Positions 5,045 to 28,357 of a stretch of 32,000 bases of DNA are shown here, piece after piece. A model generated the notes under the pieces. The model saw only the letters and a list, made by a program, of their open reading frames with translations, ran no database searches and had not been told where the DNA came from. Numbering within the stretch: the stretch's first letter is position 1; the number at the start of each line of letters is the position of its first letter. Source of the DNA: Segniliparus sp. (lineage in GTDB: Bacteria; Actinomycetota; Actinomycetes; Mycobacteriales; Mycobacteriaceae); the NCBI RefSeq assembly GCF_051660745.1, contig NZ_JBOFQF010000038.1:75039-107038 (forward strand), given 5' to 3'. Position numbers and translations under genes: made by a program.

Positions 5045-6176
5045 GGCCGACTTCCTCGTCGTCGGCGCGGGGATAGCCGGGGCTTCGACGGGGTATTTTC
5101 TCGCGCCGCACGGCAAAGTCGTCGTCCTCGAGCAGGAGGATGCTCCGGGCTACCACACCACGGGGCGCTCGGCCGCGATGTACGAGCCCGCGTACGGCAA
5201 TGCGCAGGTCCGCACGCTGACGGCGGCGAGCAGGGCTTTCTTCGACGCCCCGCCCAAGGGGTTCGCCGAGCATCCGCTGCTCGCCCCGAGGGGCGTGGTG
5301 ATCGCGCGGCTCTCGGGAGAGGAGTTCGAGTCCGACTCGCCCGAGTCCGACGAGGCTCTGATCGCCGACCTGCTCGACGTGCCGGGGGCGAAGCTCCTCG
5401 GGAAAGAGGAGGTGCTCGAGCTCCTCCCGGTGCTGCGCGAGGAGCTCGTGCTGGGCGGCGTGCACGACACGCACGCCGAAGACGTCGACGTCGGCGAGCT
5501 GCACCTCGGCTTCCTCAAGGGGATCCGGGCGCACGGCGGCGAAGTGCGCTGCGGGCGCAAGGTCGCCTCGCTCCAGCGCGTCGGATCGCATTGGGAAGCG
5601 AAGTCGGGCGACGAGGTCTACCGGGCGCCCGTGGTGGTCAACGCGGCCGGGGCCTGGGCCGACGTGGTCGCCCAGCTCGCCGGGGCCGGGCAGATCGGGC
5701 TGGTCCCCAAACGCCGCTCCGCGTTCGTCTTCCACCCGCCCGAAGGGCTGGACGTGCATGCCCTGCCAATGGTCAAAGACCTGCGGATGAACTTCTACGT
5801 CAAACCGGACGCGGGCATGCTCCTCGGCTCCCCGGCGAACGCCGACCCGGTCCCGCCCCAGGACGTGAAACCCCCGGACCTCGACATCGCCCTCGCGATC
5901 TACCGGATCGAGGCCGCCACCACGCTCACCGTGGGCCGCCCGGCGCGGACCTGGGCGGGGCTGCGCTCCTTCGTCGCGGACGAGGGGCTGGTCGGCGGGT
6001 ACGCGCCCGATGCGGAGGGCTTCTTCTGGGTCGCCGCGCAAGGCGGCTACGGCATCCAGACCTCGCCCGCGATGGGCGAGGCGACCGCCGCGCTGGTCCT
6101 CGGCGAGCAGATCCCGGCGCATATCGCCGCGCACCACGTCACCGCCGAGGCGCTGAGCCCGTCGAGGCTGCGATGA
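5028..6176 (+). CDS. FAD-dependent oxidoreductase (DAO / glycine-D-amino-acid oxidase-like family)
   Basis: Internal ATG 5028 gives MSTTTEADFLVVGAGIAGASTGYFLA..VVVLEQE, a GxGxxG Rossmann dinucleotide fold. The sequence upstream in the track ORF (4671-5027) is out of frame with the CDF gene and not protein-like. It overlaps the CDF stop by 17 nt, and its stop overlaps the next start (ATGA at 6173-6176). Confidence 0.8.
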   Translation: MSTTTEADFLVVGAGIAGASTGYFLAPHGKVVVLEQEDAPGYHTTGRSAAMYEPAYGNAQVRTLTAASRAFFDAPPKGFAEHPLLAPRGVVIARLSGEEFESDSPESDEALIADLLDVPGAKLLGKEEVLELLPVLREELVLGGVHDTHAEDVDVGELHLGFLKGIRAHGGEVRCGRKVASLQRVGSHWEAKSGDEVYRAPVVVNAAGAWADVVAQLAGAGQIGLVPKRRSAFVFHPPEGLDVHALPMVKDLRMNFYVKPDAGMLLGSPANADPVPPQDVKPPDLDIALAIYRIEAATTLTVGRPARTWAGLRSFVADEGLVGGYAPDAEGFFWVAAQGGYGIQTSPAMGEATAALVLGEQIPAHIAAHHVTAEALSPSRLR

Positions 6177-10457: not shown

Positions 10458-10476
10458 TGTGTGCTATGCTGGAGCT

Positions 10477-10929
10477 ATGGCTGAGATAGATATCACACCC
10501 CCGCCGAAGTGGCTCAAGCTCGTCAACAAAGGCATGGTCTTCGCGCAGCGCGCGCTCGGAGTCACGATGGGCCCGGTCCACGTGCTGACCGTCCCCGGCC
10601 GGACTTCCGGCGAGCCGAGGTCCACCCCGATGTCGATCGTGGCGTTGAACGGCGCCCGCTACGTCGTCGCGGGCTACGCGAAATCCGATTGGGTGCGCAA
10701 CGCCCGCGCCGCGAAGGCCGGGACGCTCTCGGTGGGCAAGAAATCGCAGGACGTGGGCATTGTCGAGGTCGACGCGGACGAAGCGCGCCCGGTGCTGCGC
10801 GAATTCCCGACCCAAGTCCCCACCGGGGTGGGGTTCATGAAGCGCAGCGGCGTGGTCGAGAACGGCACGCCCGAGGAGTTCGAGGCGTTGGCGGGCTCTG
10901 TCGTCGTCTTCCGTTTCGACTCTTTGTGA
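10477..10929 (+). CDS. Nitroreductase-family deazaflavin (F420)-dependent oxidoreductase (DDN family)
   Basis: LKLVNKGMVFAQRALG...HVLTVPGRTSGEPRSTPMSIVALNGARYVVAGYAKSDWVRNARAAKAGTL is the DDN/PF04075-type pattern (GRKSG/GRTSG...P..., sDWvrN). Its last 25 nt form the left copy of the islet-flanking repeat. Confidence 0.85.
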   Translation: MAEIDITPPPKWLKLVNKGMVFAQRALGVTMGPVHVLTVPGRTSGEPRSTPMSIVALNGARYVVAGYAKSDWVRNARAAKAGTLSVGKKSQDVGIVEVDADEARPVLREFPTQVPTGVGFMKRSGVVENGTPEEFEALAGSVVVFRFDSL

Positions 10930-10931
10930 TC
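10905..10931. repeat. Left copy of the imperfect direct repeat flanking the GC-poor islet (attL-like)
   Basis: cgtcttccgtttcgactc(tttgt)gatct here, versus cgtctttccgcttcgactcgatct at 14055-14078. The 18-nt core differs by one substitution and one single-base indel, followed by a shared gatct. Confidence 0.55.
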
Positions 10932-11605
10932 TCCCTGCGGATAGCTGGGGTCTTCGGAGAGTTTGCTGTGTGGTTGCGGCCAACGAAAGTTGCAGCAGTG
11001 CTTGGCTTGGCGGAGCCGAGTCTCCAGCGAAACCAGTCCGAGTGCGCAGCTTCGGGTGCGCAGCCCTGGTTTTGTGCTGTTTCCCATGTGCCGAGCGGAG
11101 CGCAATGGTGATGGGGTAGGAATTTGGAGGTTTGAGCGTGATGGCAGAGTTTGCTGATTTGGGCGGTAGAGGGCCAAGGGGTCAATCTCATATGCAGACA
11201 AAGCCGTGAAGTCGGAAACTATTTTCGGGAAGAGATGCGCGCTCGTGTGGATGCCTGCAACGCGCCCTTGGGGAAATAGAGGCGGAGCGTGCGAGTCGGA
11301 ATGGGAGATCGAGTCTTGGTCTTTTGGCACGCGACGGGACTTGATGTCCGGCCAGCCGGGAATTGACTGGTCGTTTTTCCGCTGTTAGTGCAGCTCGATC
11401 CGGCCATCATTCGGCTCTCTTAAGGTATGGTGGCTCTCTGTCGGATCGTCCCTGCGCGGCTGGCGATGCCTCCGGATGGCCTTATCCGACCCCAGGGTTC
11501 GTCGATGCGTCTACCGGTCTATAGTCCGCTTCATGGGTAGTATGTTCCATACGCGTGCCCACCCCAGGGGACGCGGCGGAACTCATTGAACAAGGTAGGG
11601 CAGGC

Positions 11606-12772
11606 ATGATGCCAGTCGAGAATAAGACCACTAATTTGAACGCCGCCAGGGCAGCCAAGAACGATGAGTTTTACACGCAGTGGGCTGACATCGAGCGCGA
11701 GATCAATGCGTACCTCGAGTACGATCCGGATGTGTTCCGGGGCAAAGTGGTGTTGTTGCCATGCGATGATCCGGAATGGAGTAATTTCGCTAAATTCTTC
11801 GCCTTGCACTTCGTCGCCCTTGGCCTCAAAAAACTCATATCAACATCGTATGCCCCGGACAGCAAGCCTGCCAGTCATTTCTATACCCCGACGGATTTCG
11901 AGGCTGCCGACCCCAAATTTGATGCGACCAAGACGCGACTCAACGGTAAGAAGTTTGTGCTGGAGCCGACGGATATCAACGGTGATGGTATGGTCAACAT
12001 CGATGACCTGCAGTGGGAGTATCTTGACGGCGATGGCGACTTCCGCAGCTTAGAAGTGACTAAGCTCCGCGACGAAGCGGACATCGTGATCACCAACCCG
12101 CCGTTCAGCCTCTTCCGGGAGTTCGTGACCTGGCTGATCGAGGGCGGTAAGCAGTTTGCAGTGATCGGTAGCAACAACGCGATCACTTACGCTGAGGTTT
12201 TCCCGCACATCAAGTCAAATCGGTTATGGAAGGGTGCGACTGCGAACAGCACCGACATGGTGTTCGGAGTCCCGAAGGGCGCAAAGGTATCCGATGCGGA
12301 CCGGCTGAAGGCCGAGAAGCTCGGTTACCCGTCAGACGACGAGCGGGACTACACGCGGCTCGGCAACTCCTGCTGGTTCACAAACATCGACCACGGCCGA
12401 CGCCACGAACCGTTGCAGCTCATGACTATGGCTGACAACCTCAAGTTCAACAAGCGGTTGATCAAGAAGCTCGACGGTGAAGAGAGCTACCAGCGCTACG
12501 AGAACTTCGATGCGATCGAAGTGCCGTACACGGATGCGATCCCATCCGACTTCGTCGGTGCGATGGGTGTGCCGATTACGTTCCTTGACAGATACAATCC
12601 GGATCAGTTCGAGATCATTGGTAACGGCGAGGGGCGTTTGGCGGCGGCAATGGGAGTTACCCCGCTTGGGCCCGACTTCGTAGGGAATCAGGGGCGTACT
12701 AAGCTAGGCATCGCGAGCACCAAGCAGGCAGTTTTCAAACGTATTCTCATCCGGCGGAAGGACGCCTCTTGA
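11606..12772 (+). CDS. EcoRI-like (PF13651-type) N6-adenine-specific DNA methyltransferase
   Basis: [23 protein letters not shown]...[16 protein letters not shown]...[17 protein letters not shown]...[12 protein letters not shown]. The NDEFYT N-terminal motif, the LLPCDD SAM-pocket region and catalytic NPPF are the hallmarks I associate with the EcoRI-methylase-like family. ATG 11606 (SD-like aaggtaggg upstream) is preferred; GTG 11555 is an alternative. Confidence 0.85.
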
Positions 12773-13935
12773 AGACCGAACTCAAGCACTACACCGTCGG
12801 GGAAATCATCACGGGTTTCGTCTACAACGAGATGGAGGGCAAGGGTCTCTTCGGTCTTGACGGCAAGCTCGTCATCCAGCCGGAGTATCAGCGCAACTAC
12901 ATTTATAACGACGGCAAGCGTGATGTCGCGGTAATAGATTCGCTGCTCAAGGGGTATCCGCTCGGGCTGATTTACTTCAACGTCGAAGGTGAAATGCTCG
13001 AAGTTCTGGACGGCCAGCAACGGATCACAAGCTTTGGTCGCTTCGTGACCGGAAAGTTTGCCATCAAGGTCGACGGCAAAGAGCAGACGTTTTCCTCGCT
13101 GCCCAAAGATCAACAGCAAAAGATCTTGGATACCAAGCTCGATATCTATGAATGCGAAGGCGATGAGGCCGAGATTAAGCAGTGGTTCGAGACAATTAAT
13201 ATAGCGGGCGTACCGTTGAATAAACAAGAGCTATTGAACGCGATCTACTCGGGACCATTCGTCACTGCCGCCAAGGTCGAATATAGCAACTCAAACAACG
13301 CGAACATGCAGAAATGGCAGTCCTACATTGCTGGCGACCCCAGGCGTCAGCAGATCCTCGCCGAGGCGTTGGCATGGGTAGCTTCGTTGCAGAAATTGAG
13401 CATCGATGCCTACCTGGCGCAGCATCGACAGGATGGCAATATCAAGCAGTTGAGGACCTATTTTACATCGGTAATCGACTGGGTCAGCAGCGTCTTCACC
13501 CGACCACCTGACAAAGAGATGCGCGGCCTTGAATGGGGTCGGCTATATGAGGTCTACCACTCGAAGTCCTACAGTGAGTCGATGATCGAAAATCGAGTCG
13601 AAGAACTGCGCAAGGATCCGTTTATCGGCAACCGTAAAAATATCTACGAGTTTCTACTCGGGGGTGAGACTGATACGCAGCTTTTAGAGATCCGGTTATT
13701 CGACAAGAAAATAAAAGCACTCGCTTACGATCAACAGACTGGCAAGGCTAAAGTTGCCGGTATCTCGAACTGCCCGCTGTGCGCCGTAGGAAATAATCCC
13801 AATAAGACCCGCATCTACAAGGACAATGAGATGGATGCCGACCATGTCGCAGCCTGGTCAAAGGGCGGTAAGACTGATCTGACCAACTGCGAAATGCTCT
13901 GTGTGACGCATAATCGCGCCAAAGGCAACAAGTAA
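12769..13935 (+). CDS. DUF262 (ParB/GmrSD-N-like) domain protein with C-terminal HNH endonuclease
   Basis: The TTG start overlaps the MTase stop (TTGA at 12769-12772). N-terminus: [11 protein letters not shown]...[16 protein letters not shown]...[12 protein letters not shown] (the DGQQR motif of DUF262). C-terminus: CPLCAVGN...[34 protein letters not shown] (CxxC...DH...N...HN, a His-Me finger). Confidence 0.85.
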
Positions 13936-14054
13936 TACTCGGTTTCATCTTCTGTCTAGGATCGGTGGGGTGGAGCTTGTTCGGCCCATGCCGTGCATAT
14001 GTCCCACATCGGCAGACCAAAGCCGACGTGTCCCAGTTGTAGATGGCGACTGGC

Positions 14055-14078
14055 CGTCTTTCCGCTTCGACTCGATCT
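14055..14078. repeat. Right copy of the islet-flanking direct repeat (attR-like); retains an in-frame pseudo 3' end ...SFRFDSI*
   Basis: tct ttc cgc ttc gac tcg atc tag reads SFRFDSI-stop. The intact DDN gene ends ...VFRFDSL-stop at 10929. Similarity does not extend further upstream. Confidence 0.55.
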
Positions 14079-14104
14079 AGCTCCGCCGTGGCTACACTTG
14101 CGGC

Positions 14105-14548
14105 ATGGCTGAGACTGTGACGTTGGCACCCGAGGTGCGCGCTTTCCTGGCCGAGGGCACGCGCACCGGGATCGTGGCCTGGACCGGGCCGACCGGCCAG
14201 CCGTTCGCGGCTCCGGTCTGGTTCGTCGTGGAGGGGGACGACCTGCTGTTCACCACGGTGGCCGCCTCGGCGAAGGGCAAGGCGTTCCAGCGCGACCCGC
14301 GCATCGCGCTCACCGCGCAGCTCTCGGAGCCGCCGTACGCGTTCGTGCAGGTCCGTGGCGTCGTCGAGCTCAGCGACGACCTCGTCGAGGTCCGCCGGGT
14401 GGCGACCCTCGCGGGCGGGCGCTACATGGGGGCCGAGCGGGCCGAGGAGTTCGGGGCCCGCAACGGGGTCCCCGGCGAGCTCGCCGTCCGGCTGCGGCCG
14501 GTGAAAGTGGTGGCCGCGCTCGATGTGACGGCGCCGAGTTCTTCATAA
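14105..14548 (+). CDS. PPOX-class (pyridoxamine 5'-phosphate oxidase-like) probable F420-dependent enzyme
   Basis: VRAFLAEGTRTGIVAWTGPTGQPFAAPVWFVVEGDDLLFTT...KGKAFQRDPRIALT...PPYAFVQVRGVVEL, a typical split-barrel PPOX pattern. Confidence 0.8.
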   Translation: MAETVTLAPEVRAFLAEGTRTGIVAWTGPTGQPFAAPVWFVVEGDDLLFTTVAASAKGKAFQRDPRIALTAQLSEPPYAFVQVRGVVELSDDLVEVRRVATLAGGRYMGAERAEEFGARNGVPGELAVRLRPVKVVAALDVTAPSSS

Positions 14549-27370: not shown

Positions 27371-28357
27371 TTGGCTGTGTATTTGAACCAGGCGGCGTTG
27401 TTGTTCGAGTTGGAGGAGGTCGCGGAGCGGGAGGTGAACCGCCATCTGGCGATGTCGAAGGACTGGCATCCGCACGACTACGTGCCATGGGAGGACGGGC
27501 GCAACTTCGCGGCGATGGGCGGCGTGGATTGGGACCCGGCGCAGTCCAAGCTCTCCGACGTGGCGAAGGCCGCGCTCGTCACGAACCTCTTGACCGAGGA
27601 CAACCTGCCCTCCTACCACAACCGCATCGCGGGCGACTTGTCCCCGGAGGGGGCGTGGGGCACCTGGGTCGGGCGGTGGACGGCGGAGGAGGCGCGGCAC
27701 TCCACGGTGATGCGCGACTACCTGGTCGTCACGCGGGGCGTTGACCCGGTGGCCTTGGAGTGCGACCGGATGACCCATATGACGCACGGGTTCCAGCCGC
27801 TCGTTCGGTTCTCGCCCGACACGGGTGCGGGGTTTTTGCACACCATCGCGTACGTCTCGTTCCAGGAGCTCGCGACCCGGATCAGCCACCGCAACACCGG
27901 CGCGATATGCGGGGACCCGGTCGCCGAGGCGATCATGCAGCGCCTCGCCCTCGACGAGAACCTGCACATGATCTTCTACCGCAACATCTGCGGGGCGGCC
28001 CTCGACATCGACCCGGACCAGACGATGGAGGCGATCGCGAACGTGGTGACCAATTTCCAGATGCCGGGCGTCGGCATGCCGAACTTCCGGCGCAATGGCG
28101 TGCTCATGGCGAAGTACGGGATCTACGACTTGCGCCAGCACTACGAGGACGTGCTCATGCCGGTCGTGCGCAAATGGCATGTCTTCGACCGCGACGACCT
28201 CTCCGCGCGGGGCGAGATAGCCCGCGACCGACTGGCCGCGTACTTGGAGGACCTGGAATTGGTCCAGATCCCGAGGTTCGAGGAGCACCGGGACCGCTCG
28301 CTGGCCAGGGACCGGGCGCGCGGGATCGACCGGGCTCAGGCGGTGAGCACGGTCTGA
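27371..28357 (+). CDS. desA: Soluble di-iron acyl-ACP desaturase (mycobacterial DesA1/DesA2-like)
   Basis: LFELEEVAEREVNRHLAMSKDWHPHDYVPW...DWDPAQSKLSDVAK...LLTEDNLPSYH...WTAEEARH...YVSFQELATRISHRN...LALDENLHMIFY contains the two EExxH/DExxH di-iron motifs. TTG 27371 follows aaaggagaaacgtc; GTG 27377 is an alternative. Confidence 0.88.
   Translation: MAVYLNQAALLFELEEVAEREVNRHLAMSKDWHPHDYVPWEDGRNFAAMGGVDWDPAQSKLSDVAKAALVTNLLTEDNLPSYHNRIAGDLSPEGAWGTWVGRWTAEEARHSTVMRDYLVVTRGVDPVALECDRMTHMTHGFQPLVRFSPDTGAGFLHTIAYVSFQELATRISHRNTGAICGDPVAEAIMQRLALDENLHMIFYRNICGAALDIDPDQTMEAIANVVTNFQMPGVGMPNFRRNGVLMAKYGIYDLRQHYEDVLMPVVRKWHVFDRDDLSARGEIARDRLAAYLEDLELVQIPRFEEHRDRSLARDRARGIDRAQAVSTV

Follow-up and report, generated by a model that had tools for sequence, protein, structure and literature searches.

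A methylase-coupled DUF262–HNH nuclease of Segniliparus as a probable member of a widespread mobile restriction–modification family

Introduction

In a stretch of 32,000 nucleotides from Segniliparus sp. (assembly GCF_051660745.1, contig NZ_JBOFQF010000038.1, positions 75,039–107,038; the window in the following) a gene for an N6-adenine DNA methyltransferase (gene 1) is directly followed by a gene for a nuclease which combines a ParB-like DUF262 domain with an HNH motif (gene 2). The locus raises the question what a nuclease of this kind does next to a methylase, as the DUF262 nucleases that have been studied biochemically, GmrSD, BrxU and SspE, all sense modified DNA.

We suggest that the two genes constitute a restriction–modification (R–M) cassette in which gene 1 would protect self DNA by methylation and gene 2 would encode the cognate endonuclease. 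We consider this function probable because the translational coupling of the two genes is conserved, because the two proteins co-diverge and because the genes are transferred as a bare pair. An earlier note on this DNA had argued from the tight coupling to the methylase for such a self-protection logic, with a type IV enzyme as the alternative, and the conservation of the coupling across phyla, plasmids and phages speaks for the former view. The same note had taken the architecture to be non-canonical and uncharacterised. On the contrary, existing catalogues list such pairs as a type II R–M family, and the architecture is not unrecognised; the window pair is a further member of this widespread mobile family, which has probably been characterised in part genetically.

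The two genes and their junction

The following features carry the argument:

11606–12772, plus strand: gene 1, EcoRI-family N6-adenine DNA methyltransferase, 388 aa, 43.7 kDa (PF13651, PADLOC, alignment with M.EcoRI)
12095–12106, plus strand: NPPF catalytic motif (motif IV) of gene 1, read from the translation; no variation in this column among 70 homologues
12756–12762, plus strand: Shine–Dalgarno-like GGAAGGA within the 3′-terminal part of gene 1, at a distance of 6 nt ahead of the start of gene 2 (sequence)
12769–12772, plus strand: TTGA start/stop overlap, translational coupling (sequence; the NTGA form is common among relatives)
12769–13935, plus strand: gene 2, DUF262(ParB-like)–helical–HNH nuclease, predicted restriction subunit, 388 aa, 44.2 kDa (Pfam, PADLOC)
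12871–13248, plus strand: DUF262/GmrSD_N ParB-like domain of gene 2 with invariant QPExQR and DGQQR motifs (PF03235, residues 35–160, E 8e-21)
13249–13770, plus strand: all-helical middle region of gene 2 in the AlphaFold2 model, candidate module for DNA recognition or dimerisation
13771–13932, plus strand: C-terminal zinc-ribbon HNH motif of gene 2 (PF01844, residues 353–388, E 2e-6)

Two genes of 1,167 nt each, overlapping by 4 nt with a TTG start within a TGA stop, had been described previously, and this is confirmed when gene 1 is started at the ATG at 11606. The longest open reading frame (ORF) form of gene 1 (11555–12772) has an alternative GTG start at 11555 and would code for 405 aa; the alignments with homologues begin at residues 1–10 of the ATG form. 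The motifs quoted in the earlier note for both proteins are all present in the translations, and its domain assignments are reproduced by Pfam with PF13651, PF03235 and PF01844. PF07510, the DUF1524 domain, has no Pfam match in gene 2 at E ≤ 0.1. NCBIfam holds no model for either protein.

Gene 1 matches the Pfam family EcoRI_methylase (PF13651) over the complete profile (1–345 of 345, E 3.3e-118). A full-length alignment with the M.EcoRI whose gene neighbours that of R.EcoRI on the Escherichia coli plasmid pMB5823_5 shows 38% identity, and gene 1 shares the DEFYT, CDDP and NPPF motifs with M.EcoRI. In 70 homologues of gene 1 the motifs DEFYT, CDD and TNPPFS are invariant, and the variable regions among them comprise residues 81–125, 205–260 and 340–388. 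At 38% identity the specificity of M.EcoRI for GAATTC is not transferable to gene 1.

The residues of the gene 2 HNH region (C335, C338, D358-H359, N373, C378 and H381-N382) are invariant in 23–81 homologues down to 38% identity, and the same is true for Q41-R42 and D81-G-Q-Q-R85 of the DUF262 domain. As judged from this conservation, gene 2 has an intact ParB-like nucleotide pocket and an intact zinc-ribbon HNH site. The only relative by sequence in the Protein Data Bank (PDB) is BrxU (7p9k), which is matched via the two DUF262 motifs. An AlphaFold2 model of moderate quality (mean predicted local distance difference test, pLDDT, 71.5; predicted template modelling score 0.46) begins with an N-domain of mixed alpha/beta structure, continues with a helical middle and ends in a small beta-beta-alpha unit. 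The helices are found at residues 163–330 with a pLDDT of mostly 70–90, and the lowest conservation of gene 2 falls at residues 201–220 and 261–280. When the model was compared to known structures with Foldseek, BrxU and the N-domains of CTP-bound ParB proteins ranked at the top with weak scores, and there was no match at E ≤ 0.001.

At the junction, which reads GGAAGGACGCCTCTTGAAG, the TTG start of gene 2 (12769–12771) overlaps the TGA stop of gene 1 (12770–12772). An NTGA overlap of stop and start was found in 74 of 78 junctions examined, the overlap being 4 nt in most loci compared, and an equivalent of the Shine–Dalgarno-like site, GGAAGG or GGAGG, is kept at the corresponding position in relatives. 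The start codon at this position is ATG in 55, GTG in 21 and TTG in two of the 78 relatives.

A subgroup of Saccharibacteria (L066, L069–L071, L074, L058 and L067; approximately positions 5552–6001 of the respective records) is organised differently, as methylase and nuclease gene are separated by a gap of ∼448 nt without overlap. This gap could hold a small gene, for example, for a controller protein.

Conservation and mobility of the pair

The family of gene 2 is very large, with more than 8000 homologues which mostly have 388 aa. Clustered at 50% identity, 395 relatives are found at E ≤ 1e-30, most of them 365–420 aa long. For a survey of the gene neighbourhood we used 80 genome loci with relatives of gene 2 at 59–80% identity, from Actinomycetota, Saccharibacteria, Bacteroidota, Chloroflexota, Bacillota, Campylobacterota, Burkholderiales and others. 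An EcoRI-family methylase is encoded on the same strand immediately upstream in 76 of these 80 loci. Three of the four exceptions sit at contig ends and only one locus (L039) has room for a methylase gene and lacks it, so that 76 of 77 assessable loci carry the pair. In addition, the 80 best contigs of the viral database IMG/VR were compared, which had to be found with a diverse alignment as query since a scan with the single gene 2 protein gave no match in this database. Both genes are present in 72 of these viral loci and four further loci have no room for both, leaving 72 of 76 assessable.

The pairwise identities of the nucleases correlate with those of the methylases (Mantel r 0.86, with none of 999 permutations as high), that is, the two proteins co-diverge. 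An accidental adjacency, which the earlier note had named as a possible outcome of such a survey, is not borne out; the two genes form a genuine and ancient pair.

The pair is carried by plasmids of Arthrobacter, Gordonia, Rhodococcus and Enterococcus faecium as well as by plasmids of only 9–10 kb in Moraxella, Pediococcus and Apilactobacillus. The Flavobacterium phage laban6-1 harbours it as a two-gene moron, and it is also present on a faecal phage scaffold, the nuclease of which is just 37% identical to gene 2. In Bifidobacterium dentium it adjoins a large serine recombinase gene. The DNA similarity between the window and the plasmid copies extends from ∼30 nt inside gene 1 to the stop codon of gene 2. 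As the similarity covers only the two coding sequences, the shared unit consists of just the two genes. One protein of the representative library (P0172, 688 aa) unites EcoRI_methylase, GmrSD_N and HNH domains in a single polypeptide; this could either be a true fusion of both subunits or result from a frameshift at the NTGA overlap.

On large plasmids of E. faecium, for example, pBN83-1 (L084, 3801–6155), the pair is found within a few kb of the resistance genes optrA and erm(A) and beside a fragment of a type ISP R–M system.

Relation to known systems

Both proteins are covered by existing PADLOC models over their full length: gene 1 matches MTase_II (PDLC03297) end to end (E 7.7e-87), and residues 19–388 of gene 2 match positions 17–372 of the 372 positions of REase_II (PDLC03418; E 3e-85). 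A standard defence annotator would thus call the locus "RM type II". On the REBASE sequences underlying the PADLOC model we found no statement in the literature.

A described system that resembles the window pair is BanLI from Bifidobacterium animalis subsp. lactis. Its methylase, M.BanLI (41.7 kDa), has been aligned with M.EcoRI by the authors and is followed by R.BanLI (43.5 kDa), and both genes have 50% GC in a genome of 60% GC (PMC3990576). In the site RTC(m6A)GG, where m6A denotes N6-methyladenine, M.BanLI modifies one strand. When cloned in E. coli the BanLI R–M genes reduced the plating of phage P1vir ∼10-fold (efficiency of plating ∼0.1), and methylation of the DNA by M.BanLI beforehand raised transformation 1.8-fold (PMC3990576). 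In a paper from 2026 the REBASE type II restriction endonuclease for RTCAGG in B. animalis is a gene that bears the annotation "DUF262 domain-containing protein" (PMC13091528).

Both systems thus share an EcoRI-like N6-adenine methylase of ∼42–44 kDa and, next to it downstream in the same orientation, a DUF262-annotated restriction endonuclease of ∼43.5–44 kDa, and both are GC-poor compared to their host with signs of horizontal acquisition. They differ in that BanLI adjoins an integrase gene and the window copy does not. By this analogy BanLI probably belongs to the family of gene 2. Gene 2 shares 59% identity with the member of the family in B. dentium (386 aa, 43.6 kDa). Searches that started from a Bifidobacteriaceae nuclease and from a Bifidobacterium choerinum methylase returned B. 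dentium and others and no B. animalis sequence. The earlier note had stated that close homologue pairs listed in REBASE or in defence catalogues would speak against novelty, and this is what we find, at least as regards the cataloguing and a probable partial genetic characterisation.

In contrast to the methylase, the nuclease has no counterpart in the EcoRI system: R.EcoRI is unrelated, being a PD-(D/E)XK enzyme whose gene lies upstream of the methylase gene, whereas the nuclease in the window is a DUF262–HNH protein encoded downstream. We know of no ParB-like DUF262 domain in the KpnI, Hpy99I, PacI, NlaIII, SphI, MnlI and HphI families of HNH type II enzymes. With these families gene 2 has in common a beta-beta-alpha-Me/HNH module and a separate methylase, and the classification of HNH type II enzymes from 2008 does not name a DUF262-containing subfamily (PMC2441816).

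With GmrSD, BrxU and SspE gene 2 shares a DUF262 ParB/Srx-like domain at the N-terminus, including the QR and DGQQR motifs of the nucleotide pocket, and a C-terminal nuclease of the His-Me finger type. Nevertheless, the differences pointed out in the earlier note are confirmed: gene 2 has an HNH domain (PF01844) with a Cys/His zinc ribbon in place of DUF1524 and comprises ∼390 aa compared to 580–770 aa. The genomic context differs as well, since GmrSD, BrxU and SspE are solitary and the gene 2 family is methylase-coupled in ∼95% of copies. Moreover, gene 2 is predicted to be blocked by modification, whereas the three known enzymes are activated by it.

Other DUF262 defence proteins resemble gene 2 in part. 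The DUF262 region of gene 2 gives partial PADLOC matches to NsnA of Menshen (E 4e-26) and to PD-T4-2_A (E 9e-14). These matches are limited to DUF262 and the adjacent region, and Menshen, PD-T4-2 and Dazbog (with the DUF262 protein DzbA) have other partners and no cognate methylase. In reviews DUF262 is mentioned just for GmrSD, BrxU, SspE, Menshen, Dazbog and PD-T4-2. A biochemical study of a DUF262–HNH enzyme with a methylase partner was not found in the literature.

A working model and its alternatives

Taken as an R–M cassette, the pair could work in the following way. Gene 1, a monomeric enzyme of the M.EcoRI family, would place N6-methyladenine on a short sequence in the host DNA. Gene 2 would be made through translational coupling to gene 1 and hence never without it. 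The same sequence in its unmethylated state would be found by the helical middle region of gene 2, probably in concert with the ParB-like DUF262 domain, and the zinc-ribbon HNH motif at the C-terminus would cut the DNA. Methylation by gene 1 would block this cleavage. By analogy with BanLI, the recognition site may lack symmetry and carry its methylation on just one strand, and the variable regions of the methylase leave room for a site different from that of BanLI.

Several observations weigh against this model. The main misfit are solitary nucleases: in about 5% of the assessable loci an apparently intact nuclease gene has no methylase gene within several kb (L039, L098, L099, L104 and L121, all homologues at 61–63% identity). 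The nuclease of L039 (6001–7170) has an SDR gene on one side and a TetR gene on the other, and the others, for example, L098 (4001–5173) and L121 (4001–5176), are part of integrative or mobilisable elements beside genes for Bro-N, tyrosine integrase, Mob_Pre or KAP-NTPase proteins. Such copies are not expected for a lethal orphan restriction endonuclease unless the methylase is encoded elsewhere or the enzyme is weak. Restriction by BanLI is indeed weak with its ∼10-fold effect, and the likeness to BanLI is one of annotation, protein sizes, gene order and GC content, not of alignment. We looked for avoidance of a recognition site by k-mer counts in the window and 80 to 160 related loci (1.5 Mb) and detected only a generic depletion of palindromes; the BanLI site RTCAGG is not depleted in this set, with observed/expected ratios of 0.94 for ATCAGG and 0.99 for GTCAGG. 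As the AlphaFold2 model is of moderate quality, nothing can be said on the DNA-binding surface of gene 2. Finally, the literature search returned no experiment that dealt with the present pair or with a close homologue verified as such.

One plasmid illustrates the opposite loss. On pBC of B. choerinum (L166, 3965–5482) the methylase is intact and the homology to the nuclease ends after ∼111 residues; the chloramphenicol-efflux gene cmx (917–2089 of the record) is located ∼1 kb past the end of this homology. This looks like a loss of the nuclease that left an orphan methylase.

The pair might also be seen as chiefly a selfish unit, that is, an addiction module that spreads by post-segregational killing or a phage moron that serves superinfection exclusion and attack on host DNA, with host defence being incidental or negligible. 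This would agree with a bare two-gene unit devoid of mobility genes of its own which is placed amid housekeeping genes at a GC content 15–20 points below the host, with the copies that reside on small plasmids, in integrative elements and in phages, and with the weak restriction by BanLI. Yet such a reading concerns the biological role and not another mechanism and is compatible with the R–M cassette; that selfishness is the chief role has in our view little probability.

More fundamental is the possibility that the nuclease is a GmrSD-like type IV enzyme aimed at a foreign modification, which travels with an unrelated methylase that could be an orphan or an anti-restriction enzyme. The biochemistry of the known DUF262 nucleases would point in this direction, as would the position of BrxU as best PDB neighbour by sequence and structure and the few solitary nuclease copies. 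However, a type IV enzyme needs no particular methylase family, and in ∼95% of the assessable copies an EcoRI-family methylase nevertheless remains directly upstream; an NTGA overlap is usual, and both proteins co-diverge. The defining DUF1524 domain is absent from gene 2, PADLOC places the family among the type II restriction endonucleases, and in the case of BanLI transformation improved upon methylation by the partner enzyme, while P1vir without modification was restricted by the cloned genes. Thus, we regard a type IV function as very improbable and retain the R–M cassette as the explanation of the pair.

Within the R–M model, the role of the DUF262 domain deserves attention. By analogy with BrxU and SspE, binding or hydrolysis of a nucleoside triphosphate (NTP) might gate the nuclease of gene 2, and we lean towards such a gating because the nucleotide-pocket motifs of the DUF262 domain are invariant. 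The invariant DGQQR pocket likewise raises doubt whether the criterion for type II enzymes, namely cleavage with Mg2+ alone and no need for NTP, holds.

Methylation of only one strand poses a problem upon replication, which is solved by type III and type IIL enzymes through the requirement for two sites. If BanLI is representative, the family would recognise an asymmetric site methylated on one strand and would face this problem, for which a ParB-like switch operated by NTP would suggest itself as a solution. We therefore put forward, tentatively and with a minor but real chance of being right, that the DUF262–HNH "type II" enzymes form a distinct methylation-blocked class in which a ParB-like NTP switch communicates between asymmetric sites carrying m6A on one strand. 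The CTP clamp of ParB and the ATP switch of type III enzymes would be comparable devices. Such a switch would, if true, explain how one monomeric methylase protects the genome and why restriction is weak in single-site assays, for example, in those of BanLI.

In this very large mobile family a domain otherwise known only from modification-sensing, NTP-responsive defence nucleases is joined to a classical protective methylase. A need for NTP together with one-strand protection would put the label "type II" to the test and would extend the roles of ParB-like NTPases. This question of mechanism concerns the whole family and not this locus alone.

The locus and its surroundings

Two further features describe the setting of the cassette:

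10930–14104, no strand: GC-poor islet between housekeeping genes (GC contrast and ordinary flanking genes)
10930–11605, plus strand: non-coding leader of gene 1 (∼620 nt up to the GTG at 11555) without a convincing ORF

The earlier note had described both genes as the only ones in a GC-poor islet. The GC content is indeed only 0.50–0.59 over positions 11001–14000 compared to ∼0.66–0.75 elsewhere in the window and ∼70% GC for this actinobacterial genome, and the coding sequences of gene 1 (0.554) and gene 2 (0.509) are far below their flanks (0.703). The description has to be corrected insofar as ∼620 nt of non-coding DNA (10930–11555) also belong to the islet. Upstream of the cassette lie leuS, a DUF6841 gene and a gene of the F420H2_quin_red family, and downstream genes of the PNPOx, META and ABC-F families. 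There is no other defence gene in this context within the window.

The cassette is horizontally acquired by its host. The NCBI record identical to the gene 2 protein is from a metagenome-assembled genome of Segniliparus sp. For the Segniliparus genome the pair is a routine, recently acquired R–M cassette which marks a horizontal transfer and may hinder genetic manipulation. A search around the borders of the islet revealed no tRNA gene, no integrase gene and no convincing direct repeat or target-site duplication. Three imperfect direct repeats of 16–24 nt (75–94% identity, spacing ∼3.55–3.63 kb) were found between 10463–10886 and 14091–14457. They fall inside the flanking genes of the F420H2_quin_red and PNPOx families and were rejected as target-site duplications; probably they reflect a weak similarity of the oxidoreductase genes or chance.

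The leader has an intermediate GC content of ∼0.59 and no similarity to other cassette loci or plasmid copies. It may be a remnant of the donor or intergenic DNA of the host. That the pair is decaying or silent here, with intact frames and without expression or restriction, is scarcely to be expected: the rare TTG start of gene 2, the missing sigma-70-like site on the plus strand of the leader and the truncated nuclease beside an intact methylase on the related bifidobacterial plasmid could be quoted in its favour, but both ORFs have full length and keep every invariant residue, and a consensus scan is not valid for actinobacterial promoters.

Elsewhere in the window, positions 27689–27756 on the minus strand give a full-length match to the Rfam family ASdes TB sRNA (RF01781; 53.4 bits at a gathering threshold of 40, E 4.6e-10), which is consistent with an antisense small RNA of the mycobacterial type and fits a host from the Mycobacteriales.

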